Shown piece after piece: positions 5,558 through 26,976 of a stretch of DNA of 64,000 bases. The position numbers were made by a program, and so were the translations under genes. Below the pieces are notes generated by a model that ran no database searches, was not told the DNA's origin, and saw nothing but the letters and a program-made list of their open reading frames with translations. Position 1 is the stretch's first letter. Every line of letters begins with the position of its first letter. The stretch is from Thermoanaerobaculia bacterium (GTDB lineage: Bacteria > Acidobacteriota > Thermoanaerobaculia > Gp7-AA8): contig DATDFB010000093.1 of the NCBI GenBank assembly GCA_036522835.1, positions 40,683-104,682 on the forward strand, in the 5' to 3' direction.

Positions 5558-7762
5558 TCACGTTCGCCGCAAAGCGTGCAAAGCCGCCGCGCCCGGCGAG
5601 GCCGCTGACCGCGACGGCCGCGCCGGCGATCTGAACGCCGCCGCAACGGCCCCGCGGAGCATCGACTCCGAGGGAATGTACGGAATCGCGCCGCCGCACA
5701 TGGCCTCATCCCGCCGTCTGTGCCAATCCGTGACTTTCGAGCGATGGAGATCCGCCGCGCGCGCGAGAACGAAGTCTCGCGTGATCGTCGATCGCGTTTC
5801 GCCCGCGATGGGCGGTTGGCCGCGATCCAACAGCGGAAAGTCATTCATGATGAGAGCCGCGTCGTCCAGGTCGAGGCCGTACGCTTTGAAGATCGTCGCG
5901 TCGATCGTGGCCCGGAGCGCCGCCGCCGCGAGCATCGTGTCCCGGCTCGAGCCGGCGGACGCGAGGCGTACGAGCTTCCGCGCGTCATCGGCCAGTCTCC
6001 GCGTCGCGATCGTCTCCTCCATCAGGCTGGCCGGGACCGGCAGGCTCCGCAAGAGAAAATAATTGACCGTCGTGGTGATGACTCTTCGGGCCACCCAGTC
6101 GAAGGCAAAGCTGTTGAGCAGGGCCAGGAAGCGCAGCCGCTGAACTTCATCCTCATCACCGAAGGAGATCGTCGGCACCTTGTTGCCGCAGACGACGCCG
6201 GCCGGAATTGGCGCGGCCAGAATGGCGCGCTCGTTCGTCTGCCCGGTGGTGTCGCAGAAGCCCAAGCGCTCGCGGAAGGCGCGCTGGAGCGTCCGCTCGG
6301 GAAGCGAATCTTTCTTGCACCAGAACTGCGGCGCGGTCGCGGCGTCGCCGAACGGCAGCGGCGTCCATTGCGCGCGGCGGCCGCTGCCGCTCGCATACGC
6401 TTTCGCGCCGAACAGATATTGATTCACCATGCGGCCCTCGACAATCGGAAGAGCGCCGCTCGAGCGGTGCCGCGAGAACAGGGCGCGGTCGCGCGTCATG
6501 TCGAGCTCGCGAACGATCGTCGGCTGCCAGCGCGGCGGCACGTCGCTCCACCTCTGGCTATGACGATAGATGGCCCGGAGCACCCGCCATTCGGCGGGCC
6601 CGCGCACCTCCGGCACCGTCAGGTCTGGCCGCATGGCCTGCAACTGACGGATCGGGATCCGAACGCTCGACTCGGATGGCGCGGCGTGCGCGACTTCGAA
6701 TGCGCGCGCGCCCTTTTTCGCAACGCGCGCCGTGAGCGCGAGAAACTTGAACCGCGAGTCGATGGCGAAGAACCGCGCGCGATTTTCCATGACCACCAGG
6801 CGAAGGCCGCTCGTTCGTCCGAGCAGCAGTTGCCGCAGCTCTTCGGTCGATTGCGAGCGAATCAGGCCGGCGGGGACGAGCACGGAAAGCCGCCCGCCGC
6901 TGCCGGCCAGCCGGAACATCAGCTCCAGAAATGCTCTGTAGAGATCGGGCTCGCCGTTTCGGAGAAGCGGATACCGCTCGAGGAGCTGCATCGCATACGA
7001 GCTGACCTGCTCGAGCCCGGCCTCGTACGCGCGCAACGCCGATGAATCGTAGTCGGCGCCGTAGTGCCGCTCGCCGCCGAGCGACTGGATGTATTCGTGC
7101 CGCGAGAGCTTCAACTTCTCCCACGGCGGATTGGCGATCACCAGGTCGAAACCGCGCTCCGGGACGCCGGCGAGGAGACTGTCGTGCCGGCGCCAATGCG
7201 AATTCATTTCGTCGATGGCATCGAGATCGTCGACCATCGACGCCAGGGCCAACCGCGCGCCGCGCAGCGCGGCCGCCGACCGGTCCGCCGCATAGACGCG
7301 GTCGCGCAGCCACGACGCCGTTCGCACCCGGTCCGACCCGCACGCGGCCATGACCACGGCGGCGAGCAGCACGCCCGACCCGCTGGCCGGATCGATGACC
7401 CGGCCGTCCATGGCGTCGCGAGACAGGCCGGCGAGATATTGCGCAAGCCGGAAGTCGGTGTAATACGCGCCGGCCGTCCTCCGCGACAAATGCGGAAGGC
7501 GCTCGCGCGCGAGCGCGCTCAATGCCAGCGGAAGCGGAATGGCGATGTTGGAGAGCAGCGCCACGACGCGCTCCGCTGCCGCCAACGCTTCGTTCGCGCG
7601 GATGCGCGGCGAGAGATGGAAGCGCCGCCAGTATTCACGTACATCGAAACCGCCCGCTCGCGACGACGCCGCCTCGAGGACGGCCACGCGATCGTCGACC
7701 TCGGCGAGCAATAATTCGACAGGCGCTAAAAGCTGATCTTCGTGCGTCGACGCGACGGTCAA
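5558..7762 (-). CDS. gamma-class N6-adenine DNA methyltransferase (Eco57I/TaqI-like) with TaqI_C-type target-recognition domain, no nuclease domain
   Basis: YYTDFRLAQYLAG, SAM motif I VIDPASGSGVLL, catalytic motif IV IANPPWEKLK, GGRLSVLVPAGL, C-terminal LALLNSFAFDWVARRV (TaqI_C-like). The first 183 codons of the ORF overlap the dam gene and are Arg-rich junk. Proposed TTG start overlaps the dam stop (TTGA). Start uncertain. Confidence 0.75.
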   Translation of the reverse strand: MTVASTHEDQLLAPVELLLAEVDDRVAVLEAASSRAGGFDVREYWRRFHLSPRIRANEALAAAERVVALLSNIAIPLPLALSALARERLPHLSRRTAGAYYTDFRLAQYLAGLSRDAMDGRVIDPASGSGVLLAAVVMAACGSDRVRTASWLRDRVYAADRSAAALRGARLALASMVDDLDAIDEMNSHWRRHDSLLAGVPERGFDLVIANPPWEKLKLSRHEYIQSLGGERHYGADYDSSALRAYEAGLEQVSSYAMQLLERYPLLRNGEPDLYRAFLELMFRLAGSGGRLSVLVPAGLIRSQSTEELRQLLLGRTSGLRLVVMENRARFFAIDSRFKFLALTARVAKKGARAFEVAHAAPSESSVRIPIRQLQAMRPDLTVPEVRGPAEWRVLRAIYRHSQRWSDVPPRWQPTIVRELDMTRDRALFSRHRSSGALPIVEGRMVNQYLFGAKAYASGSGRRAQWTPLPFGDAATAPQFWCKKDSLPERTLQRAFRERLGFCDTTGQTNERAILAAPIPAGVVCGNKVPTISFGDEDEVQRLRFLALLNSFAFDWVARRVITTTVNYFLLRSLPVPASLMEETIATRRLADDARKLVRLASAGSSRDTMLAAAALRATIDATIFKAYGLDLDDAALIMNDFPLLDRGQPPIAGETRSTITRDFVLARAADLHRSKVTDWHRRRDEAMCGGAIPYIPSESMLRGAVAAAFRSPARPSRSAASPGAAALHALRRT

Positions 7763-8802
7763 GCGATCACCGCCCTCGCCAGCACCTCCTCCTCCTTTTG
7801 GATCTCGATCAGATATTCGGTCACGTCCGCCGCCGCCGCGCTGGCCACTGCATTCGGCCGGTACCGCCCGATCTCGCCGATGGCGCCGACGCTGACCTCC
7901 CCCAACGCGCTCAAGGCCTCGGTCAGCGGCTCGATCGGCACGTGCCCCTCCGAGCTGTAGGAGAGAAGAATGCGCCGCGGCGGCAGTTGCCGGACCATTT
8001 CGGCGATCGCGCCGAGGGCCTTGCGCCGATAGCAGAAGCGCGAGGCGTTCTGGACCCACGGCCTCAAGCCCGTCACGCCCGTGACTTCGGGCTCGTCCCC
8101 CAAGGCGATCGTTTCGAGGATGTGGTAGTAGGCGGCGTATTGGCGCTTCGTGTAGGGCGGGTCGAGATAGGCGACGTCGTCCGCGGTCATCGGAACCTCG
8201 AGGACGTCGCCGCAATGAATCCGCAGATCGACGCGCCGCGAGAAAAGCGTGCGCCGCGGCATGAGCATCAGCGGCTCGCGCGCCTGCGGCAGCCAGTGCC
8301 GCAGAAAACATCCATACGTTCCGGCGATGTTGGCGACGCGATTGGCCGCGGCCATGAGGTCCGCCACGAGCACGCGGTGCTCGGCCGTCGTGATCTCGCC
8401 AAGCGCGAAACGCCGCTCGATCTCGAAACGAATGGCGTCGATGCGAGCGGCGTTCTCTTCAGAAAAGTACTTTCGTCCCGAGACCGGGCTGTACTCGCGG
8501 TAAATGAATCCCTCGCGTGGCGGAATCTCGTTGAGATGAACGAGCGCGCGCTCATACGAGCCGAACGCGCGGAAGGGTATGTCTTCGCGCGCCGTCATCC
8601 GCGCCGCGGCCATGATCGTGGCCGAAAAGAGCGTGTCGTTGAGCGTGACGCTCCAGCCGCGAAGGGCGGCCCGTTCGGAGACGACGCCGGTGCCGCAAAA
8701 CGGCTCGATGAGACGGCGGCGAGAGTCCGCCGGCCTGCCGATGAGAGTGGCGATCGCGTCCGCAACCCGAGCTTTCGAACCGATGTAGCGAACGGTCGCC
8801 AT
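7759..8802 (-). CDS. Dam-family (D12/alpha class) N6-adenine DNA methyltransferase
   Basis: MATVRYIGSKARV (motif X), EPFCGTGVV (motif I), and DPPY (motif IV) after a central TRD, in alpha-class order. Starts 4 nt after the stop of the upstream GGDEF gene. Confidence 0.8.
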   Translation of the reverse strand: MATVRYIGSKARVADAIATLIGRPADSRRRLIEPFCGTGVVSERAALRGWSVTLNDTLFSATIMAAARMTAREDIPFRAFGSYERALVHLNEIPPREGFIYREYSPVSGRKYFSEENAARIDAIRFEIERRFALGEITTAEHRVLVADLMAAANRVANIAGTYGCFLRHWLPQAREPLMLMPRRTLFSRRVDLRIHCGDVLEVPMTADDVAYLDPPYTKRQYAAYYHILETIALGDEPEVTGVTGLRPWVQNASRFCYRRKALGAIAEMVRQLPPRRILLSYSSEGHVPIEPLTEALSALGEVSVGAIGEIGRYRPNAVASAAAADVTEYLIEIQKEEEVLARAVIA

Positions 8803-15010: not shown

Positions 15011-15697
15011 TCATGCGGGAGAAATCACCACGTGGACGCGGCCGGATCGCAGCTCCAGGCGGACGGCGCTCCACTCTTCAAAATGCGCGTCCGCCTCCGT
15101 TTGATCCTCTCGGCCGAAGACCTTGGACGGCGTAGCGACACAGACCAGTCCCGCAGCGCGCGCGGCGGCAATGCCCGAAGGCGCATCCTCGAAGGCGATC
15201 GCGCATTCGTTGGGAACCCCGAGCGCCGAGACCGCCAGCCGATAGCCGGCCGGATGCGGCTTGACGTTCGGCTCGACGTCCTCGCGCGCGATCACGACGT
15301 CCGGCGCCGGAAGGCGCATCGTACGCAGCGCGATCTGGGCGCTGGACCGTCGCGCGGTGCTGACGACGCCGATCGCAACGCCGAGAGCCCGCAGCCGAGC
15401 CCAGAACGCTTCGACACCGGGAAGGGGACGTAAGTCTCGCTCGGCCAAGACGGCGAAGTGCGCCGATTTCTCGCGATGGAGGACTGCCGCCTCGTCGGAG
15501 GGCAGCATCAGGACCTCTTCGAATCGGCGCTGCCCCCGCAGACAGAAGTCGACGTAATCGTCCCAAACCGGCGCGGAGCGGCCGCGATCGGCGAGCGCGC
15601 GGCGCCACGCCTCGAAGTGCAGCGGCGCGCTGTCGCAGAGCGTGCCGTCCAGGTCGAAGAGCGCAGCGCGAAGATCCGCAATCAACTCGCCGCTCAT
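15011..15697 (-). CDS. HAD-superfamily hydrolase (beta-phosphoglucomutase-like phosphatase)
   Basis: FDLDGTLCDS motif I. ATG overlaps stop of upstream SIR2 gene (ATGA). Confidence 0.8.
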   Translation of the reverse strand: MSGELIADLRAALFDLDGTLCDSAPLHFEAWRRALADRGRSAPVWDDYVDFCLRGQRRFEEVLMLPSDEAAVLHREKSAHFAVLAERDLRPLPGVEAFWARLRALGVAIGVVSTARRSSAQIALRTMRLPAPDVVIAREDVEPNVKPHPAGYRLAVSALGVPNECAIAFEDAPSGIAAARAAGLVCVATPSKVFGREDQTEADAHFEEWSAVRLELRSGRVHVVISPA

Positions 15698-18534
15698 CCC
15701 CGTTCGGCCCAAAGCGCCTGCCACACCCGCTCATTGCGCAGTCGTTCCAGGACGCACAGGAAATCGACGAACGACCCGGCGTAGCATTTGAGGCTCGCCA
15801 GCACCGTCGCGGCGAAGAGAATCGTCTCGGGTGTTTGACGGTTTTCCAAGCTCCTCCAAAGACCGTACGAAAGAATGCCCCGAACCGTATCGCCCGCGCC
15901 GAGGGTGTGCCGTTTCAGCGCTGCAGCCACGCGAAAATCGGCCGACTCGCCGTTGCACCTCAAGTGGCCGTCTCCCGCGCCCGCGTCCGCAGGAATGGTA
16001 ATCGTTGCTTCGTTGACGATGTTCGGAACGCCGCCGCGATCGGACTCGCCCACGAAGCGGATCTCCCGGCCGGAGCGCTCCGTTCGCACGATGATGGCGA
16101 CGGGCGAAGCCTGGGCATCGCGACGCCATGACGCAATCAAGCCCAGCTCGTGCATCGTGACCACGAATCCGCCTCCCAACCGGGCGTCGGGGGCCAGCAA
16201 CGCGGCCGGTACGAGACCCGGAGTCGAGAGAATCTGCCACGCCGATCGGTGGATGTCCGTCCAGCAGGCCTGAAGCCAGCTGCCGTAGGCAATCTCCGGT
16301 CCGTGAGCAACCTTTTTCGGATCCCAGAGAGTCTTTCCGAAGCTGTTGATCCGCACCACGTACTCAGCGCCGCCGGGAGCCGCCGGCGACGCCAGCTGCT
16401 GCAGGCGGGGATCCGCGCGAAATTCGCGGAATGCGCGATCGACGGTCTCCCAATCCGGCATCGTCGGGTTGTTATTCGTGTCGAGGAAGCCGATGGACTG
16501 GAGCGCAAGCGTGCGGAGAAATGACCCGATCGACGCCGTCCAGACGGCGGGAGGCTTCGACAGACGGAGCAGTTCATCGCCGGATGATCCGGTCTCGTAG
16601 ACGACCGGCCCCTTCCAGTTCCCGACGAGCTGCGCATCGGCCAACTTGTCCGCGAAGAGCAAGTCTGCGGCTCCGGCAAAATCCAGATGCGGAGGAACCT
16701 TCAACGCGCTGACGCGCGACGCTGACAGTCCGGCCACGACAGGCTCATCGACATCGAGGATCATGCGTTGCCGTGGCTGGAGCGAGTCTTCGTCGCTCTT
16801 TTCCGCATCGAATAGGAGGACATGGCTCGTCCGTCCCGCTTCCGTACCGGCCGTCTCGCCGATGGGCCGCACGTCGATGCCCGCGGAAAGACAGAACTCT
16901 TCGACTTCGTTCCAATGGGACCAGCGCTCGACGCCGTTCGACAGGAATGCGATTCGCCCCACCGACGAAGGGCCCGCCGCCGTCGCCGCGACCATCACCG
17001 GTACGAGCCCGGAACCTCCCGGGACCTGCGAATCGACGGGCTCGAGGCTTGCGGAGACGCGCCGCCGCTCCGGGAAATCATCTGCCTTGCGCAGCGCGAT
17101 GGCGTGCCAGACGGACGCGAGTCCGGCGACGACGAGGCGCGGCGGCGTCGCCGGTGCCGGCGTGCCGGCTTTCGATCGGACGCCGCCGGATGCGAGCGGG
17201 ATTCGCGTGAGCTCGGCGGTCTGTGCGTCGAGCCACGCCTGTGCGGACGCGTGCTGGAGACTGCGGCGCCAGGGGTTGTCCAACTGCGCACGGAGGTCCA
17301 CACCGGGGTCGCGGCGGCCGCCGGGATAGCGCCACTCGTGCTTCTTGACGGCCGTCAGCTCGCCCGGAAGCCGCGCGCGACCGATTCCTCCCGGCGAAAA
17401 GCTCCACCACTCCACGCCGAGTTGCCTCAGCCGCTCCTCCTCGTGAAGGTCGGCGAGCGCATCGCGCCGGTATCGCAAGGCCACACGCCGGTTCGGGCCT
17501 CTCCACTCGTGTTTGTGGCGCTGCAGGACGGCGCCGACGTCGACGTCCACCTCGTGCAGGTCATAGCCGATGAAGAGCAGCGGCGACCGTCCCAAGACTT
17601 CGAGAAGCTCGGCGATGGCCGCGTCCTCCCCAAGAAAACGCCGGAGCACTTCCAGATACTCGGTCTGGGAAAATACGCCGGTGGTCACGGCGGATTGCTC
17701 GTCATGCTCGGGAGCCATCCGCCAATGCAAGCCGGGCACGAGTCGATCGGTCGGGACGGCGCCGGCGAATTCTTCGTCCGCGCCCAGTTTGCCCCACAGA
17801 CTGTCCGCCGCAAACGCGCGGTCGAGCTCCATTCGTTCCGTCAACCAACGCCGGCCCAGAGCGCGCTTGATCGCGTGGAGGCAGCCATGGATTTTCCAGA
17901 TTTTGACCGACGCCGCCGTACTGGCGGAGCCTCGGGTCCAGCGCGCGTTGATCCCTTCGGGCGTTGCCGTCTCGATCGCGACGGCGGGGTCGTGCACAAC
18001 GCCGTCGAGGGCTCTGGCAATGTTCTGTTCGATCGCACAATCGACGTTGGTGGTGACGACGTGAACGGGCGGTGACTTCCTCGCCAGAACCTGGATGGTC
18101 ACGACCTCGGCGATCCATTCGAGGAGCGCATTGCTGGCAATTCCGTTCGGGGGATGGAGCTCGCGGCCGAGCAGATGGAGACGAGCAAGCCGCGCCGACT
18201 CGCGCGTCAGATGCGGAAACCGGCTCACCACCTGATCGTCGAACCATTCCGCCTGCCGCGGTGCCGGCAGTTGGACGAAGCTCGACAGGGGCAGGCACGC
18301 GCGGCTTTTGGGATCGCCCGCCAGCGACCAGAGATCTTCCATGTGCTTCTGCCAGGAAGGACCAGGCTCGCCCTCGTCGAGATTCCTTCTGGGCACGGTG
18401 TTCGTCGGCACCCTGCGAATCCCATTGCCGATGAAGAGAACGAGCTCCCCTTTGGCGATGGATTCGCCGAGGTGACCCGCCATCTCGACTTTGCGCGCCT
18501 CGTCCGGATCGACCATTGCAGGTTCCAGCGGCAT
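15694..18534 (-). CDS. SIR2_2 (ThsA/DSR-type sirtuin-like) domain protein with ~550-aa uncharacterised C-terminal region
   Basis: ELVLFIGNGIR (Rossmann), VVTTNVDCAIEQ (TTNYD-like), KIWKIHGCL (HG), PLLFIGYDLHEVDVDV. ATG at 18534 preceded by GGAAAG. The upstream 74 codons overlap the nth-like gene. Confidence 0.75.
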   Translation of the reverse strand: MPLEPAMVDPDEARKVEMAGHLGESIAKGELVLFIGNGIRRVPTNTVPRRNLDEGEPGPSWQKHMEDLWSLAGDPKSRACLPLSSFVQLPAPRQAEWFDDQVVSRFPHLTRESARLARLHLLGRELHPPNGIASNALLEWIAEVVTIQVLARKSPPVHVVTTNVDCAIEQNIARALDGVVHDPAVAIETATPEGINARWTRGSASTAASVKIWKIHGCLHAIKRALGRRWLTERMELDRAFAADSLWGKLGADEEFAGAVPTDRLVPGLHWRMAPEHDEQSAVTTGVFSQTEYLEVLRRFLGEDAAIAELLEVLGRSPLLFIGYDLHEVDVDVGAVLQRHKHEWRGPNRRVALRYRRDALADLHEEERLRQLGVEWWSFSPGGIGRARLPGELTAVKKHEWRYPGGRRDPGVDLRAQLDNPWRRSLQHASAQAWLDAQTAELTRIPLASGGVRSKAGTPAPATPPRLVVAGLASVWHAIALRKADDFPERRRVSASLEPVDSQVPGGSGLVPVMVAATAAGPSSVGRIAFLSNGVERWSHWNEVEEFCLSAGIDVRPIGETAGTEAGRTSHVLLFDAEKSDEDSLQPRQRMILDVDEPVVAGLSASRVSALKVPPHLDFAGAADLLFADKLADAQLVGNWKGPVVYETGSSGDELLRLSKPPAVWTASIGSFLRTLALQSIGFLDTNNNPTMPDWETVDRAFREFRADPRLQQLASPAAPGGAEYVVRINSFGKTLWDPKKVAHGPEIAYGSWLQACWTDIHRSAWQILSTPGLVPAALLAPDARLGGGFVVTMHELGLIASWRRDAQASPVAIIVRTERSGREIRFVGESDRGGVPNIVNEATITIPADAGAGDGHLRCNGESADFRVAAALKRHTLGAGDTVRGILSYGLWRSLENRQTPETILFAATVLASLKCYAGSFVDFLCVLERLRNERVWQALWAERG

Positions 18535-18560
18535 CGCTTTCCACGCGTGCCGCAAGCAGT

Positions 18561-19147
18561 CTAACGATGCGCCGTCACGCCGACCTGCCGGCAGTACTCG
18601 AGGACCGCGCAAGTCGAGCACTTGGGCAGGCGTCCCGTGCAGATGTGCTTTCCGAACGGCACGCGACGTAGCCCCAGCGGTTCGTGACGCGATGCACGTG
18701 GATATCCACGCTGATCCGCTCCGCCCCGCAGGCCACCCCCATCGCCAAATTCGCACACTTGGGACCGACGCCGTGGAACGAGGTCAGAATCTCGAAGTCG
18801 CAGGGAATCTCGCCGCCGAATTCGTCCACGGTGCGCCGCGCGATCTCGCGGATCTGCGCCGCCTTCGCCTCGTGAAAGCTGCTCGCCCGGATCAGCGTAT
18901 CGATCTGCGCCACGGACAACGCCGCCACAGCGGCCGGCGTGGCCGCACGCTCGAAGAGGTTGATGGCCGTTGGAAGACTCACTTCGTCGCGAGTGCGGAT
19001 GGAGATGATGCACCCGACAAGCTGCTGAAAGACGCTCCGAAAGCCGCGCTGCGCAAGCGCGAACATGGCCGCGTCCGCATGCTCCGTCACCGCCGCGCGG
19101 ACGCGGCGCAGGACGTCGTCGATGTCGAACGGCCGCTTGCGCGCCAT
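18561..19147 (-). pseudogene. nth: endonuclease III (Nth)-like HhH-GPD glycosylase, apparently frameshifted before the 4Fe-4S motif
   Basis: HhH-GPD region (FHGVGPKCANLAMGV ... DIHVHRVTNRWGYV) lies in one frame. The Cys-x6-Cys-x2-Cys-x5-Cys cluster (CTGRLPKCSTCAVLEYC) lies in the +1 frame of the same strand. Confidence 0.5.
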
Positions 19148-19214
19148 GCAGATATCGAGCACGGTAAGCTAACCGCCGGTTGCCTCGTCCGTCTCTTCTC
19201 TTCGGAGGCTCCTC

Positions 19215-20606
19215 TTGAGAAGGCTCGCTCTCGTTGTCCTCACGTTTGCCCTAACCGCGTGCGCGACCACGGATGCCGATCGCGTCAAGGGGTTCGAGCG
19301 GGAGGCGGATGCGCTCCGGCAGGCTCTATACATCCCCGGCATGTCCGCCGCGATCGTGAAGGACCAGAAGGTTCTTTGGACGCACGGCTTTGGATACGCC
19401 GACCTCGAGAACCGCGTGCCCGCCACGCCGGACACGCTCTACCACGTGGCCTCGGTGACGAAGACGTTCGGCGCGACGCTGGTGCTGCAGCTCGTCGAGA
19501 AGGGGGAGGTCTCGCTCGACGAGCCGATTGCGCCGTACACGCCGTCGCGGTTCTCGGGGAAGATCACCGACCCGCGCGTGCAGATCCGCCATATTCTCAG
19601 CCACACGTCCGCGGGCACGCCGGGCGATGCCTTCGCCTACAACGGCAGCCTCTACGATGCGGTCACGCCGGTGATCGAGAAGAAGTACGGGGCGCCGTTC
19701 CGGCAGGTGATCGCGCAGCGGATTCTCGATCCGCTGAAGATGACGGAAAGCGTTCCCGGCCACGAGGTGATCAACGATCCGGAGCTCGCGCGCCGCTACG
19801 CGCCCAACCTCGCGCGCTTCGCCAAACCGTACGCGCTCTACGGCAAGGGCGAGATCGTCCCCGCCAGCTACCCCGGCAAAGAGATCGGTGCCTCCGCCGG
19901 GTTGCTCTCGACGGTGCGCGACCTCGCGAAGTACGACATCGCCATCGATCGCCACGTCCTTCTCCAGCCGAAGACGCAGGAGCTTGCGTGGACGCCGTTC
20001 GTGTCGAACAAGGGCGAGCGCCTCCCATACGGACTCGGTTGGTTCACCGGCGAGTACCGCGGCGAGAAACTCATCTGGCACACCGGCAATTGGGGTTTGG
20101 GGTTCTCAGCGTTGGTTTTCAAGGTGCCGGCGAGGAATGTGTCGGTGATTCTTCTGGCGAACAGCGAGGCGCTCGCCGACGGCTTCTGGGTCCCGGGCGA
20201 GACGAATCCGTTTGCCTGCGCGTTCCTTCGGCAGTTCGTGTTGACGGCGGACGATCCTTGCAAAGAGGCGGCGGCGGCGGTGATGAACCAGTGGCTGGCC
20301 GGGCGCGCGGCGGCTTACGAGCCGGCCATCGCGCTCGACGAGGCGGTCCTGGCGTCCTACGCCGGCGAGTACCGGCCGAGCGAGGGGCGGACGCACACGA
20401 TCGCGCGCGAGGGAACGCACCTTTTCGTCGACATCCCAAGGAAAGACGATCGATTGGAGATTTTCCCCTCCGCGAAGGGCGATTTCTTCCTCAAAGTCCC
20501 GACGGTGACGCGCATACGATTCATTCGCGAGGGGGAGAAAGTGACGGCGCTGGAGTTCACCTTCGGCCCAGGAGAGAAGCCCATTCGCGCGGAGAAGATC
20601 CGGTGA
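19215..20606 (+). CDS. serine hydrolase of the class C beta-lactamase / penicillin-binding-protein-like family
   Basis: Lipoprotein-like signal peptide. S-x-x-K motif in HVASVTKTF. 463 aa. Confidence 0.85.
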   Translation: MRRLALVVLTFALTACATTDADRVKGFEREADALRQALYIPGMSAAIVKDQKVLWTHGFGYADLENRVPATPDTLYHVASVTKTFGATLVLQLVEKGEVSLDEPIAPYTPSRFSGKITDPRVQIRHILSHTSAGTPGDAFAYNGSLYDAVTPVIEKKYGAPFRQVIAQRILDPLKMTESVPGHEVINDPELARRYAPNLARFAKPYALYGKGEIVPASYPGKEIGASAGLLSTVRDLAKYDIAIDRHVLLQPKTQELAWTPFVSNKGERLPYGLGWFTGEYRGEKLIWHTGNWGLGFSALVFKVPARNVSVILLANSEALADGFWVPGETNPFACAFLRQFVLTADDPCKEAAAAVMNQWLAGRAAAYEPAIALDEAVLASYAGEYRPSEGRTHTIAREGTHLFVDIPRKDDRLEIFPSAKGDFFLKVPTVTRIRFIREGEKVTALEFTFGPGEKPIRAEKIR

Positions 20607-20790
20607 CGGACTTCAGGACCTGCTTTTCGAAAATGCCGCTTCGATCGGCGCCGACCGAGCCGGCAGCCTGCCACTGCACGATGAGTTTCGAGGCCGCCTC
20701 GATCGAAGTCACGTCGAGCGCGCAGGGGATGTTCTCCGCCGATCGCGAACGGCCGTTCCGAAGTACGTATTGAGTACGCGGAGTCCAACA
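20600..20790 (-). mobile_element. degenerate duplicate of the integrase 5' region (integrase remnant) ending in the conserved GTACGTATTGAGTACGCG motif
   Basis: 20612-20725 is ~85-90% identical to 25307-25510. Encodes ALDVTSIEAASKLIVQWQAAG vs ALDVTTIEAASKLILQWRAAG of the integrase at 25159-25623. Confidence 0.5.
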
Positions 20791-21034
20791 TGTCATAGCT
20801 TTTCGCCCTTTGCCGGTTGTCCTCGAAGAAGGAAGGTCTTCGGATACTTTCCTTCGCTGCAAATCTTGAATGAGCCGAAGTCTTTACCCAGGGTCCGTCC
20901 GGTGCTACCGGCTCCGACTCACGCCAGACCTTGAGCTGGTAGAGGTCTTCGACGGTGATTTTGCGCGCGCGAAGTCGGTCGAAGAGGTGGTCGCGCAACG
21001 CTGCCGGTAGATTGGTCCACTGAATCTTCGGCAC
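20770..21034 (-). pseudogene. truncated ORF translationally coupled to the upstream RHH gene (putative toxin remnant)
   Basis: GTG overlaps the RHH stop (TAGTG). Reads VPKIQWTNLPAALRDHLFDRLRARKITVEDLYQLKVW... and runs without a stop into the integrase-remnant duplicate and the opposite-strand bla-like gene. Confidence 0.3.
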
Positions 21035-21306
21035 TACGGCTCACCGAACGTCATGCGTGCCAGTTCTTCTTTGAGCCGTTTCTGCTCGGCGGGATCGGAC
21101 GAATGGGTCAGCCGGTCCGCAACCTCAAAGAATGCAACCTTCTCCCGCTCCTTTGCATCGAGACCGCTTTCGATCAGATCGACGATGACGCGGTTGGCAC
21201 TGGTGCGATGGCGCTTCGCGAGCGCCTGAACACGCCGTGCCACGGATAACGGGAGACTGACGCTCTGGCGGACAGTTCGCTGCGATTGAGCCATGAGCTT
21301 CTTCAT
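21034..21306 (-). CDS. ribbon-helix-helix (CopG/ParD-like) protein, antitoxin-like
   Basis: RQSVSLPLSVARRVQALAKRHRTSANRVIVDLIESGL fits the RHH beta-strand plus two helices. 90 aa. Lies in the low-GC patch. Confidence 0.6.
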   Translation of the reverse strand: MKKLMAQSQRTVRQSVSLPLSVARRVQALAKRHRTSANRVIVDLIESGLDAKEREKVAFFEVADRLTHSSDPAEQKRLKEELARMTFGEP

Positions 21307-21989: not shown

Positions 21990-22973
21990 CTACGATGCGA
22001 TCTGCCGCACCCATCTCTCAACCACCGCCCGCACCTGGAGATCCTTTGAATAATCTTGATAGAGGTCCTTGATTAGATCGAAGGGCACGGACGGCAGCGA
22101 CGTATGACGCAGTACGAGACACTCCTTTCCTTGGTAATGCATCATGCCAAGCTCGTAGGCGACATTTGGGCTATAAGCCTGGCCAGCTTCAGCTTCATCA
22201 AAGAGTGCGATGCCGAATTTGCAGCAGTAGAGGACTGCAATCGGATTGTAGATGTTACGGGTTATATTCCAAGCGTCCTGATCAGCACGGACGCCGCACA
22301 GGCCGGCGCGCGCGAGACATTCAATGATGAATTCGCCTAGCTCCACATTGTTTGCACGAAACTTCATCATTAGGAATACGTTTTTCTCGAATGGGAAACG
22401 AAGTAGTTGGCGCTCGATATCTTTTTTGTAGCCGACTAGTGGTTTTATGAGTTCGTATCGGCCATGACTAAGCAGGTCAAGTGTTCGCTCCTTCTCGGGA
22501 ACCAGGCGCCTTATTTCTTCCTCGACGATACGCCGCACCTCACGTTCGCGCACAAATTCTAAGTTGGGGTGTGGCGCAGCGACTGGCGTTCTAATAATCG
22601 AGTCAATGAGTTCCATCAAGGACGCTGTGTTCAACTCCGACTTGTCCAACAAGGCGTCCACACCTAGCGCACTTAGCTCGCGGGTATAACGGGCCGAGAA
22701 TGCAGAAACGGCGATAAGGGGCGTTTTCGGTAGTAAAGTCTTAGCGAACTTAATAAAGCCCAGGCCGTCCGATTCATTCGGAGAAAGTACGAGATCGGTT
22801 ACTATGGCGTTGTAGGCCGGATCGGCCTTCAGGCGAGCTATAGCGTCCTCGGCGGACGTGACGAGAGTGACGTCGACCCTATCGCTAATAGTGTCGCGAA
22901 TCGCGTCGAGGTAAATCACGTCATCGTCGAGCCACAGTAGACGCGGCTTGGATGAAGAAGATGTCGTCGGCAT
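21990..22973 (-). CDS. response regulator: receiver domain fused to a nucleoside 2-deoxyribosyltransferase/DNPH1-like (TIR-related flavodoxin-fold) domain
   Basis: REC part: LLWLDDD, IVTDLVL, LIAVSAF, LLDKS. C-terminal part: NVFLMMKF ... IAVLYCCKFG ... SPNVAYELGMMHYQGKECLVL, which matches the catalytic-Glu motif of NDT (DVGLGMELGYALSQGKYVLLV) and DNPH1 (SLGVGYELGRAVAFNKRILCLF). ATG overlaps the HK stop (TGATG). Confidence 0.75.
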   Translation of the reverse strand: MPTTSSSSKPRLLWLDDDVIYLDAIRDTISDRVDVTLVTSAEDAIARLKADPAYNAIVTDLVLSPNESDGLGFIKFAKTLLPKTPLIAVSAFSARYTRELSALGVDALLDKSELNTASLMELIDSIIRTPVAAPHPNLEFVREREVRRIVEEEIRRLVPEKERTLDLLSHGRYELIKPLVGYKKDIERQLLRFPFEKNVFLMMKFRANNVELGEFIIECLARAGLCGVRADQDAWNITRNIYNPIAVLYCCKFGIALFDEAEAGQAYSPNVAYELGMMHYQGKECLVLRHTSLPSVPFDLIKDLYQDYSKDLQVRAVVERWVRQIAS

Positions 22974-24418
22974 CAATCCTCCCCTTGCGTCAGTTCAGTG
23001 CCGTCTGGCCGCCGCTGAAATGCGAACAATGTGCATCGGACACGCGGTAATGTTACCGTCGCAATTGTTTTTGCCTCGTCATCAGATACGCTGCGTTGCA
23101 GTTTGACTGAACCACCATACCCTTCAATTACTGTACGGACGACGGCAAGACCATACCCGCGTCCCGGCCCATTCCGGGTTGAGAAGCCCTCCTCGAAGAT
23201 CTTCTGTTGCAGGCCTGGCGGAATACCTTCCCCATTGTCAATCACTCTGATGATCACGCGCCCGCCGTCTGGATTTCCTTCGCCTTGAGTCAGGACGGCG
23301 ACGCGGCCAGATCTGTCAGGCGAAACCGCGTCATACGCGTTCCGCAGTAGATTCACAATAGCGCGCATAAGTTCTACGCTGTCGGCACGCACGCAGCAGT
23401 TGTGTGAATAGTGGACTGTTAGAACAGCGCGCTCCGGCCGCGTTTCTTTGATCGCCATAACGGCGAGTTGGACCACGGTATTGACATTGACAACGCTCGT
23501 GCGTGGCGCACGGCTATCCGAAGCGGCGGTGGGGGCCAAAAGATCGTTTAGATCTATAAGATCATTAGGAGTCGGCAATAACTGCTGCGCGGCTGAGAGC
23601 GTAGCGTTAACGCGCAGGACGGCGTCGTCCAGCGCTTGTAGCTCGGCAGCGACCCGGTCTTCGGCCGGCCCGAGTAACTGTGTAATACGGTCGACATGCA
23701 GGCCGATTTGGGCAATAGGCGTTCCTAGTTCGTGCGTCACACGACCTATGGTGGCAGCCGCTCCAGATAGACGTGCGCCGATCGACGCCTTTTCAATGAA
23801 GGCCGCCTCAAGCCCATATGCGATCGACACTTTACTAGCAATAGCGACGACGAACAGGATTTGCAAAAAAGGAGCGGCTGTGGTCGCTGGAATGATGGCT
23901 GATAGTGGCTGCAGCATTGCGTAGCAAAGGGCACCGCCTGCTGGCAGATGGACAAAGCGTGCGGCTCCCGGCAACGAAATGGTTAAAGCCTTGCAATAGA
24001 AGACAGCAAGAGCGACCAGGCCGAATGTGTTCAGCATTGCCATGAGAAACGGTCGCAGTTGAAAGGGCGCCCAAATCGATGACGCGGCGATGACGATTAG
24101 TAGCGTTAGGGCGATGCGCCATATGGAAGAGACACGTCGCTCACTTAGCAAAGCTGCGCCGAACAGCGCAGCGGAGATAACATCAAAAGCCACCGAGGAG
24201 ACTTCCAGCCACCGGTATTCAGGAAGTGCGGGGACGCCAAGAGTACCGATGAGGAGGTATACGAGGTGGGCGAACCAGCCTAGTGCGGCTAGCGAGAACG
24301 ATCGTCGCGCCAACACCCGGACGGCCTGTGCATTGGTGATGATTAAGAGGATGACCGCGAAGAGTTGCGCGGTCACGAGATAGTTGATCAGCCGTTGAAG
24401 CACCTGCGAAGTCACCAT
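22973..24418 (-). CDS. multi-pass membrane sensor histidine kinase (6-7 TM, HisKA, HATPase_c)
   Basis: About 200-aa N-terminal region with 6-7 hydrophobic helices. H-box VTHELGTPIAQIG. N, G1 and G2 boxes (NLLRNAYDA, DNGEGIP, GYGLAVV). Confidence 0.85.
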   Translation of the reverse strand: MVTSQVLQRLINYLVTAQLFAVILLIITNAQAVRVLARRSFSLAALGWFAHLVYLLIGTLGVPALPEYRWLEVSSVAFDVISAALFGAALLSERRVSSIWRIALTLLIVIAASSIWAPFQLRPFLMAMLNTFGLVALAVFYCKALTISLPGAARFVHLPAGGALCYAMLQPLSAIIPATTAAPFLQILFVVAIASKVSIAYGLEAAFIEKASIGARLSGAAATIGRVTHELGTPIAQIGLHVDRITQLLGPAEDRVAAELQALDDAVLRVNATLSAAQQLLPTPNDLIDLNDLLAPTAASDSRAPRTSVVNVNTVVQLAVMAIKETRPERAVLTVHYSHNCCVRADSVELMRAIVNLLRNAYDAVSPDRSGRVAVLTQGEGNPDGGRVIIRVIDNGEGIPPGLQQKIFEEGFSTRNGPGRGYGLAVVRTVIEGYGGSVKLQRSVSDDEAKTIATVTLPRVRCTLFAFQRRPDGTELTQGED

Positions 24419-26124: not shown

Positions 26125-26976
26125 ATGATGAGAGCATTCCGCGGCATGGACGTCCAGACCATCGTTCGCGCCGCGCTCGCCGAGGACCTGCCCGACATCA
26201 CCAGCGAAGCCATCTTCGACGCCGGCGACCGCGGCCGGGCCCGCTTCGTGGCCAAGGCAGCGGGCGTCGTCGCCGGGCTGCCGTTTGCCGAGGCGACATT
26301 CCAGGCCATCGACGCCACGAGCTCGTTCCGGGCGACGAAGAACGACGGCGACGCCGTCCAGCCCGGCGACGTCATCGCCGAGGTCGAGTCGAGCGTCATC
26401 GCCCTCCTGAGCGGCGAGCGCACCGCGCTCAACCTACTCCAGCGCGCCTCCGGCATCGCTACGACTACGAAACAATACGTCGACGCCGCCGGCGGCACGA
26501 ACGCCAAGATCTACGACACCCGCAAGACCGCGCCGGGCCTGCGCGAGATCGACAAATACGCCGTCCGTTGCGGCGGCGGCGAGAACCACCGCATCGGTCT
26601 CTTCGATATGTTCCTCATCAAGAACAACCACGTCGACCGCGCCGGCTCCATCACCAACGCCGTCGAGCGCATCCGCCGGCGGGGAATGCCGCAGAAGATC
26701 ATGGTGGAAGTGCGCGACATGCGCGAGCTCGACGAGGCACTGAGTCTGAGGCCCGACTTCATCCTTCTCGACAACATGAGCGCGAGCGAGCTCAAACAAG
26801 CCGTCGAGCGCACCGCCGGCGCCGTCCCGCTCGAGGCTTCGGGCGGCATCACGCTCGAGACCGTCAGGGCCATCGCCGAGAGCGGCGTCGACCGCATCTC
26901 CGTCGGCGCTTTGACTCATTCCGTCAAGGCTTTGGACATCTCCATGCGCGTCGTGGCACCGCCTTTGCCGCAGTGA
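26125..26976 (+). CDS. nadC: nicotinate-nucleotide pyrophosphorylase (quinolinate phosphoribosyltransferase)
   Basis: N-terminal IVRAALAEDL. TRKTAPGLR. NNHVDRAG. Start at ATG 26125, because the upstream part of the ORF is the tmRNA antisense. Confidence 0.85.
   Translation: MMRAFRGMDVQTIVRAALAEDLPDITSEAIFDAGDRGRARFVAKAAGVVAGLPFAEATFQAIDATSSFRATKNDGDAVQPGDVIAEVESSVIALLSGERTALNLLQRASGIATTTKQYVDAAGGTNAKIYDTRKTAPGLREIDKYAVRCGGGENHRIGLFDMFLIKNNHVDRAGSITNAVERIRRRGMPQKIMVEVRDMRELDEALSLRPDFILLDNMSASELKQAVERTAGAVPLEASGGITLETVRAIAESGVDRISVGALTHSVKALDISMRVVAPPLPQ

Follow-up and report, generated by a model that had tools for sequence, protein, structure and literature searches.

A SIR2–PfkB-like fusion gene and its phosphohydrolase neighbour in a Thermoanaerobaculia bacterium: a candidate two-gene module for NAD+ processing

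Bacterial immunity relies heavily on SIR2 NADases and, to our knowledge, every characterised immune member pairs its SIR2 domain with a sensor, be it SLOG, HEAT, pAgo, HerA or STAND. In ThsA of the Thoeris system, the effector carries at its C-terminus a SLOG domain that binds nucleotides or ribose; DSR2 is a single-gene system whose C-terminus is a HEAT-like sensor of the phage tail tube; and KomC of the Kongming system (KomBC) is a dITP-activated SIR2 NADase controlled via a nucleotide from accessory enzymes. In ADP-heptose synthesis, the PfkB kinase of HldE is followed by the HAD phosphatase GmhB. NAD+ is also destroyed by aRES, whose RES domain turns it by phosphorolysis into ADPR-1''-phosphate, a product that phage NARP1 is unable to convert back (bioRxiv 10.64898/2026.01.28.702374).

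Our study concerns a locus within a stretch of 64,000 nucleotides, referred to as the window, in which one gene joins a SIR2 domain to a PfkB-like domain and overlaps the gene of a phosphatase:

15694..18534, minus strand: SIR2-PfkB-like fusion gene (ORF list, start shared with homologues, AF2 model, 34 homologues)
15011..15697, minus strand: HAD-IA phosphatase of 228 aa (Pfam and NCBIfam matches, four HAD motifs)

The fusion gene product has 946 aa, its ORF being called from the ATG at 18534, and the aligned methionine is also the start in the homologues P0002 and P0003. Its AF2 model has a pLDDT of 81 and a pTM of 0.85; the homologues measure ~900-1000 aa (n=34) and, among 31 sequences, the entire protein is strongly conserved at a near-constant length. 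The ~946-aa frame listed in an earlier note on this DNA is a real gene, and the overlap that the note had seen with the phosphatase is also there, the stop TGA (15694-15696) sharing bases with the ATG (15697-15695) in an ATGA.

The N-terminal part of the protein and the linker that follows it contain these features:

17365..18447, minus strand: SIR2 (SIR2_2-type) domain, residues ~30-390 (Pfam PF13289 and Foldseek)
18040..18054, minus strand: TTNVD motif, residues 161-165, with the catalytic-Asn equivalent N163 (T161, T162, N163 and D165 invariant in 31 sequences)
17884..17895, minus strand: KIHG motif, residues 214-217, with the catalytic-His equivalent H216 (K214, H216 and G217 invariant in 31 sequences)
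17149..17364, minus strand: conserved linker, residues ~391-462, with HEWR and a helix at 421-442 (alignment and AF2 secondary structure)

Pfam PF13289 (SIR2_2) matches at 30.7 bits against a gathering score of 24.5, with partial coverage restricted to residues 158-220. In Foldseek, the N-terminal half retrieves ThsA (8btp, 6lhx, 7uxt), DSR2 (8ykf, 8w56) and KomC (9v0g, 9xvc) at E values of 4e-6 to 1e-4 and a probability of 1.00. Judged by its modelled fold, this domain, for which NADase activity is predicted, is a defence-type SIR2 resembling those three proteins, and it is of the ThsA/DSR2 NADase type and not of the deacylase/CobB type. The earlier note had called it a defence-type SIR2 from four motifs, all of which we located (LVLFIGNGIR at residues 31-40, TTNVD, KIHG, and LLFIGYDL at residues 319-326); the catalytic Asn and His, whose conservation it had left as a question, are invariant across the 31 homologues, as are H399, E400, W401 and R402 of the linker.

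The remainder of the protein, which the same note had described as ~550 aa with no recognisable motif and had interpreted as a sensor of a phage protein, turned out differently:

15697..17148, minus strand: diverged PfkB/ribokinase-like domain, residues 463-946 (Foldseek, and hhalign to a sister family)
17008..17022, minus strand: PGGSG, probably corresponding to the di-glycine (GG) motif of PfkB kinases (G506-G509 invariant)
15889..15906, minus strand: TLGAGD, PfkB anion-hole and catalytic-base motif with D882 (L878, A880, G881 and D882 invariant)

When the C-terminal domain was modelled by itself, 40 of the 41 top Foldseek matches were kinases of the PfkB/ribokinase superfamily; the C-terminal half matched RBK1, human RK, LacC and YihV at TMt values of 0.55-0.59, and adenosine kinase as well. 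On these structural comparisons the C-terminal ~480 aa are a diverged PfkB/ribokinase-like domain with an enzyme-type fold that is neither HEAT-like nor SLOG, and since the note itself had named a metabolic enzyme fold in this region as counter-evidence, the sensor part of its reading fails. About 60 C-terminal residues are invariant and many of these are polar; one is the Asp of GAGD, the catalytic base.

The domain shares its fold with the PfkB/ribokinase kinases (RbsK, LacC, AdoK, YihV), as well as the order of GG followed by GAGD. It differs from them in insertions totalling ~190 aa (helical at ~680-780, beta at ~810-870), in the lack of an evident NXXE motif, and in its constant fusion to SIR2, no other architecture of the domain being found among 1.84 billion representatives. 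Pfam PF00294 (PfkB) has no match in the window protein and reaches one of 13 family members, at E 0.13. It is important to note that AF2 confidence is low immediately before PGGSG, and that a weak hhalign alignment (Prob 57%) places TPNETE of RbsK against TAGFPF in the sister family and TASIGS in the window protein, with no acidic residue; the domain could consequently be a pseudo-kinase that binds a ligand. Near the putative NXXE position lie two invariant residues, E647 and E654, which could substitute.

The sister family supplies a link to recognised kinases. It is related to the window family over 597 columns (hhalign 99.3%, E 1e-20), and its member P0064 matches both Pfam SIR2_2 (48.9 bits) and PfkB (53.9 bits). 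In the alignment at Prob 57%, the sister family pairs with E. coli RbsK end to end; its GGSA, equivalent to PGGSG, falls on G41-G42 of RbsK, and TLGAGD falls on the RbsK AAGD (D255).

The second gene of the locus is a phosphatase by class, matching PF00702 Hydrolase (96.8 bits), PF13419 HAD_2 (80 bits) and TIGR01509 (62.4 bits, cutoff 29.4) and carrying the motifs FDLDGT, VVSTA, KPHP and FEDAPSG, and it scores under every equivalog cutoff. The fusion gene nearly always adjoins a phosphate-removing enzyme whose fold differs by lineage, and this is its only recurring neighbour. A downstream HAD gene occurs at 7 loci of basal lineages, with orthologues in L001, L015, L011, L024, L025 and L026; an upstream, divergent IMPase-family gene is found at ~10 loci that form one derived actinobacterial clade; L014 has a metallophosphoesterase as its partner and L017 a NUDIX protein; and in L009 and L013 the full-length fusion gene has no adjacent hydrolase. 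Independent arrangements are seen in the sister family, with partners of the HAD (divergent), IMPase (same strand) and NUDIX (overlapping downstream) types. Between the two families, the partners show no more than a generic relationship, which indicates independent recruitments and hence selection for the activity itself. Co-translated or co-regulated with the fusion gene, the partner has repeatedly given way to unrelated folds (HAD, IMPase family, NUDIX). The pairing of an NADase with a phosphatase proposed in the earlier note stands, and its conservation among homologues is real and strong at the level of the activity, the fold being variable.

The family comprises 34 proteins in a search of 5.8 billion sequences and is present in 3 of 185,579 species genomes, with a patchy distribution across phyla (Acidobacteriota and Actinomycetota). 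Its homologues are not core genes: they are rare, their neighbours are not conserved even between homologues 77-78% identical, and no conserved additional pathway genes were found around the family loci. Genes near these loci include transposases, PIN/MazE, TIR-nSTAND1, PycTM, a second SIR2_2, Macro and MTases, and an IS truncates one copy of the fusion gene. The contigs around the locus are chromosomal. In the window itself, the immediate neighbours are an M61 peptidase, a serine hydrolase and a GGDEF protein, none of them a defence gene, nadC lies ~7.5 kb away, and GC is 0.65-0.67 over the locus, host-like and similar to that of the remaining window, as had been noted before. Upstream of the module, and outside it, is a broken gene:

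18561..19162, minus strand: nth (endonuclease III) pseudogene (alignment to EndoIII 1orn)

The earlier note had recognised this disrupted nth as frameshifted, which is only partly correct. Its first fragment corresponds to residues 13-156 of 1orn and a fragment with the Fe-S loop, in another frame, to residues 183-210; from the gap between them, ~26 codons were deleted in addition to the change of frame. The same broken sequence is identical in two further assemblies, and nth is not beside the 77-78% identical homologues.

Compared with the closest described systems, the module shares with ThsA the SIR2_2-type fold, TTNxD and KxHG, and an effector joined at its C-terminus to a domain for nucleotide or ribose binding, but that domain is PfkB-like where ThsA has SLOG, a phosphohydrolase partner is present, and neither the window nor 20+ loci have a ThsB/TIR gene adjoining the fusion gene. 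With DSR2 it shares a length of ~950-1000 aa and a SIR2 domain that superposes over ~380 columns (8ykf, 8w56), which is all that the Foldseek alignments to DSR2 span; the conserved enzyme fold and the conserved partner hydrolase set it apart from the HEAT-like sensor and single gene of DSR2. Membership of the ThsA or DSR1/DSR2 families was ruled out on the C-terminus. The match to KomC extends from the SIR2 fold to the idea of nucleotide control, whereas KomA and KomB homologues are absent here and the nucleotide-handling domain, of PfkB type, is in cis. PADLOC v2 gives no full-length system model match for the window protein, only a weak SIR2-domain match (E 1.6e-4), and its ThsA and Dsr models do not match it; in the sister family, the ThsA and Dsr2 models match the SIR2 domain only. 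Together with the recurrent phosphohydrolase partner, these searches point to an undescribed and uncatalogued module built on a rare SIR2-PfkB fusion.

We tentatively favour, with a little less than even confidence, the interpretation that the two genes form a horizontally scattered NAD+-processing module, most likely for biological conflict of the anti-phage or abortive-infection type. The extreme rarity of the family, its patchiness across phyla, its unconserved neighbours and the IS-truncated copy argue for conflict, as do the nearby transposase, toxin-antitoxin and STAND-type genes and the PADLOC ThsA/Dsr2 matches of the sister family. This interpretation is weakened by the conservation of the whole protein at constant size, unlike fast-evolving phage sensors, by the host-like GC, the non-defence neighbours and the lack of a PADLOC model, and by the replacement of the KxHG His with Asn in NUDIX-partnered sister proteins. 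The architecture is an observation and the mechanism a proposal, in which the SIR2 domain would cleave NAD+ to nicotinamide and ADP-ribose; the kinase-like domain would bind the ribose-bearing product and, with ATP, might phosphorylate ADP-ribose or a related ribosyl compound; and the partner hydrolase would then remove or destroy the phospho-product. The net result would be consumption of NAD+, and possibly ATP, that is not simply reversible by ADPR-based salvage or, alternatively, a self-limited phospho-ADPR signal.

A more specific version of this chemistry, which we regard as unlikely, is that ADP-ribose made by SIR2 would be phosphorylated at once by the kinase in cis, that phospho-ADPR would act as a new immune second messenger or as a dead end blocking phage NAD+ reconstitution, and that the interchangeable hydrolase (HAD, IMPase, NUDIX) would set the lifetime of the product or drive an ATP-burning futile cycle. 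For the favoured interpretation as a whole, aRES offers a conceptual precedent by functional analogy only, in that NAD+ destruction would end in phosphorylated ADPR unusable by NARP1; the folds differ, and hydrolysis plus a kinase is proposed here as opposed to phosphorolysis. In addition, a phosphatase is the phage's counter-measure in the case of aRES and is host-encoded here; a host enzyme returning phospho-ADPR to ADPR would undo the anti-NARP1 effect, which speaks against the favoured interpretation.

Two other explanations each have a low probability in our view. The first is an accessory metabolic or salvage route unrelated to immunity, with N-glycosidic cleavage or transfer on NAD+, phosphorylation of the ribose and dephosphorylation, a 'phosphate walk' that would make or recycle a ribosyl compound and may be likened to HldE/GmhB in the logic of a PfkB-type kinase and a HAD phosphatase acting on one sugar phosphate; the nucleotidyltransferase is absent here and a SIR2 domain is present. 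All three parts have folds common among enzymes that metabolise sugars and nucleotides, and strong purifying selection over the full length, host-like GC, ordinary window neighbours with nadC not far off, and loci inside chromosomal contigs are in agreement with it; however, such a route fits poorly with so few species genomes, the lack of further conserved pathway genes nearby, a SIR2 of NADase type, and the IS, toxin-antitoxin and STAND genes flanking several loci. The second, equally doubtful, is a DarT/DarG-like toxin-antidote pair, in which the SIR2-kinase toxin would deplete NAD+ or make a toxic phosphorylated nucleotide and the phosphohydrolase would continuously destroy the product, either as an addiction module or with release upon infection. 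The translationally coupled two-gene unit, the exchange of the partner for any hydrolase that destroys phospho-nucleotides, NUDIX included, and the mobile, patchy settings beside other toxin-antitoxin genes are compatible with this, but NAD+ could not be regained through a phosphatase, the partner lies downstream or is transcribed divergently, unlike the usual antitoxin-first operon, and L009 and L013 keep the full-length fusion with no hydrolase adjacent. Finally, it is very improbable that the protein is a single-gene sirtuin like DSR1/DSR2 or ThsA, as first proposed, with a C-terminus that switches on the NADase upon sensing a phage protein (or cyclic ADPR as a signal) and a HAD enzyme tidying ADP-ribose products, since, despite a SIR2 fold similar to both and a size near that of DSR2, this is largely refuted by a PfkB fold in place of HEAT repeats or SLOG, highly conserved with invariant catalytic-type residues and known in no other architecture, by the absence of a TIR/ThsB partner, and by the silence of the PADLOC ThsA/Dsr models.

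That SIR2 is hard-wired to a kinase-type domain, and that its hydrolase has been exchanged at least five times in evolution, implies that the product of NAD+ cleavage undergoes further chemistry. This bears on how hosts make NAD+ depletion irreversible in the face of phage NAD+ reconstitution pathways. If ADP-ribose is indeed phosphorylated in cis, NAD+-centred immunity would gain a new biochemical route; a metabolic module would instead represent a new ribosyl pathway that consumes NAD+. As a compact two-gene system, the module is experimentally tractable.

The fusion gene lies on the minus strand, between the remnant of an endonuclease III gene (nth) and the gene of a HAD phosphatase:

18561-19162, minus strand, nth pseudogene, whose Fe-S loop is in another frame than its HhH-GPD part
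ATG 18534 to TGA 15694, minus strand, fusion ORF of 946 aa
15011..15697, minus strand, HAD phosphatase of 228 aa (PF00702, 96.8 bits; PF13419, 80 bits; HAD-IA subfamily model)

The ATG at 18534 is supported as the start by the homologues P0002 and P0003 (77-79% identical), which begin at the aligned Met. As an earlier note on this DNA had claimed, the stop of the fusion gene and the start of the HAD gene share an ATGA, and the GC content is host-like (0.65-0.67 throughout the locus, matching the window); the host is a Thermoanaerobaculia (Acidobacteriota) metagenome-assembled genome (MAG) from soil. No substrate-specific equivalog model reached its cutoff with the HAD, the closest being the PGMB/YqaB subfamily (89.9 bits vs 153), and a promoter and terminator scan gave a result at chance level. 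The nth gene, described as frameshifted, is indeed broken, though a frameshift alone does not account for it: its first fragment (18575..19162) aligns with residues 13-156 of endonuclease III 1orn and its Fe-S cluster loop, in another frame, with residues 183-210, so that about 26 codons have been lost in addition to the change of frame. The broken sequence is identical in assemblies of two other samples, and the protein numbering of the parent NCBI MAG leaves no accession for nth.

The N-terminal domain was previously read as a SIR2 domain on the basis of four motifs, all of which we found: LVLFIGNGIR (31-40), TTNVD (161-165), KIHG (214-217), and LLFIGYDL (319-326). Pfam SIR2_2 exceeds its gathering score, with coverage limited to residues 158-220; T161, T162, N163, D165, K214, H216, and G217 are invariant among 31 aligned family members; and Foldseek with the full-length AF2 model (pLDDT 81, pTM 0.85) matched the SIR2 domains of ThsA, DSR2, and KomC (E 4e-6 to 1e-4). 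Taken together, these results uphold the SIR2 identity of the domain, and by inference from its family the fusion protein is a putative NADase. PADLOC gave a weak generic SIR2 match only, and NCBIfam had no match for the protein. One family member, P0043 (1127 aa), carries a low-complexity insertion of ~170 aa within its SIR2 domain.

The C-terminal half had been considered a motif-less sensor of a phage protein, a proposal for which we found no support; instead, model matches, invariant motifs, a profile search, and sister-family homology point to a PfkB/ribokinase-like domain. This half of the full-length model matches ribokinase, LacC, adenosine kinase, and YihV (Foldseek, TMt 0.55-0.59), and 40 of the 41 top matches of a C-terminal-only model are PfkB/ribokinase-superfamily kinases; the latter model is poorer than the full-length one (pLDDT 69.8 vs 81) and served only to confirm the PfkB matches. 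PGGSG (505-509) and TLGAGD (877-882) are invariant, as are ~60 further, largely polar residues. A Pfam search of 13 C-terminal domains (E<=10) yielded a single PfkB match (E 0.13), the whole-family profile had no match among PDB sequences at E<=10, and global hhalign of the domain against E. coli ribokinase RbsK was informative at the GAGD motif only. A search of 1.84 billion representative proteins with the C-terminal-domain profile found only 38 proteins, full-length or fragmentary members of the same family except for the bridging protein P0064. None of the 38 is fused to a different effector, and we rejected the idea of a modular sensor common to other effectors.

P0064 clears the Pfam thresholds of SIR2_2 (48.9 bits) and PfkB (53.9 bits) alike. 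It is one of a sister family of SIR2_2+PfkB proteins of 750-810 aa, whose homology to the window family extends over 597 columns (hhalign 99.3%, E 1e-20). A weak hhalign alignment (Prob 57%) pairs the C-terminal domain of the sister family, from end to end, with RbsK (query identical to 1RKD/1GQT); it matches GG, GAGD, and the TL(G)..G strand, and the NXXE of RbsK falls on non-acidic residues. Given this last mismatch and the weakness of the alignment, canonical kinase chemistry is plausible but unsecured. In two NUDIX-partnered sister proteins, P0072 (L034, 7001-9675) and P0073 (L035, 1691-4586), KxNG replaces KxHG; since the catalytic His has become Asn, SIR2 activity may be lost or changed in them.

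Phosphohydrolase partners of the fusion genes; the first two rows are the main arrangements, read by tblastn over all fetched loci (L numbers denote loci of homologues)
Window, L001, L015, L011, L024, L025, L026: HAD, directly downstream, same strand
L002/3/12, L006-8, L010, L018-23, L027: IMPase family, immediately upstream, divergent
L014: calcineurin-like metallophosphoesterase, upstream, divergent
L017: NUDIX, upstream, divergent
L009, L013: no hydrolase at the divergent upstream position
Sister family, L031/32: HAD, upstream, divergent
Sister family, L033: IMPase, upstream, same strand
Sister family, L034, L035: NUDIX, downstream, overlapping

The IMPase partner is nearest to HisN, an identity that we rejected, its 114-144 bits being far under the cutoff of 275. 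Neighbour joining placed the HAD-linked lineages at the base of the tree, as a paraphyletic group, and united the IMPase-linked ones in one derived clade, the pattern of non-orthologous displacement. The sister-family arrangements are independent of those of the window family, and the HADs of the two families, like their IMPases, are only generically related, which argues that phosphohydrolase activity, rather than a particular protein, is what is selected.

The gene neighbourhoods of the homologues resemble variable regions or defence islands, though not uniformly, and they differ even between relatives that are 77-78% identical:

L002: second SIR2_2 protein, Macro-domain protein, STAND-type regulator
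L004: multiple transposases, helicase
L006, L007, L011: NUDIX proteins
L033: IS1595 transposase, PIN protein
L034/L035: TIR-nSTAND1-FGE (sulfatase), PycTM, PIN/MazE, transposases, resolvase

At L002 (6134-12903, Pseudonocardiaceae MAG), the family member has its IMPase and a membrane-anchored Macro-domain protein beside it; the second SIR2_2 protein (636 aa) is unrelated and on the convergent strand. Two unrelated loci each have a DUF6788 protein no more than a few kb from the family member (L004, 15382-15864; L010, 12472-13050). In the window, the immediate neighbours of the fusion gene are ordinary genes, and two adjacent DNA methyltransferase genes (5558-8802, minus strand) lie 6-9 kb from the module:

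7759-8802, minus strand, D12-class type II MTase
5558-7762, minus strand, Eco57I/type IIG-like REase-MTase

The nadC gene (quinolinate phosphoribosyltransferase, NAD+ biosynthesis; 26128-26976, plus strand) is ~7.5 kb from the SIR2 gene, a proximity that is probably coincidental. A histidine kinase gene (22973-24418, minus strand) overlaps that of a response-regulator-like protein (21990-22976, minus strand), whose C-terminal domain of ~200 aa matched nothing in Pfam or PADLOC. The pair lies inside a 54% GC patch (~20.6-25 kb), which may have been acquired, as it is about 12 GC points under the rest of the window. A 90-aa ribbon-helix-helix-looking ORF (21034-21306, minus strand) abuts a second ORF (20357-21034, minus strand); the two may be a small TA-like pair, and neither has a family match.

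The family is rare: a search of 5.8 billion sequences identified 34 proteins, every one annotated as hypothetical. Among 185,579 species genomes there were three loci (Pseudonocardiaceae and other Actinomycetota MAGs), and JGI metagenomes had 14. No relatives were found in the viral contigs searched. On a 7-Mb contig, the copy at L004 (8001-10238) has been cut to 745 aa by an adjoining DDE transposase, amid five clustered IS genes, which indicates that the gene is dispensable.

In its SIR2 domain the fusion protein works like ThsA, DSR2, and KomC, but it belongs to none of these families, having neither a SLOG nor a HEAT domain and no TIR or Kom partners. PADLOC v2 does not include the system in its catalogue, and a literature search on SIR2 with ribokinase, PfkB, or sugar kinase returned nothing relevant and no described SIR2-PfkB fusion. 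We class it among the SIR2-based NAD+ systems, its new elements being an enzymatic domain and a conserved hydrolase partner.

In the simplest chain that we infer, the usual substrate class of each enzyme is the product of the preceding one: the SIR2 domain would cleave NAD+ to nicotinamide and ADPR, the PfkB-like domain would phosphorylate ADPR, or a related ribosyl compound, on a ribose hydroxyl, and a monoesterase (HAD or IMPase) or pyrophosphatase (NUDIX) would hydrolyse the phospho-product. As a precedent, aRES makes ADPR-1''-phosphate and thereby defeats phage NARP1 (bioRxiv 10.64898/2026.01.28.702374), so phosphorylation of ADPR has a bearing on the arms race; the host-encoded phosphatase found here is not obviously compatible with the exact logic of aRES. 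The module may also have a purely metabolic role. For the cell, the proposed chain could mean a drain of NAD+ (and ATP) not easily reversed, a phospho-ADPR signal that limits itself, or a pairing of toxin and antidote.
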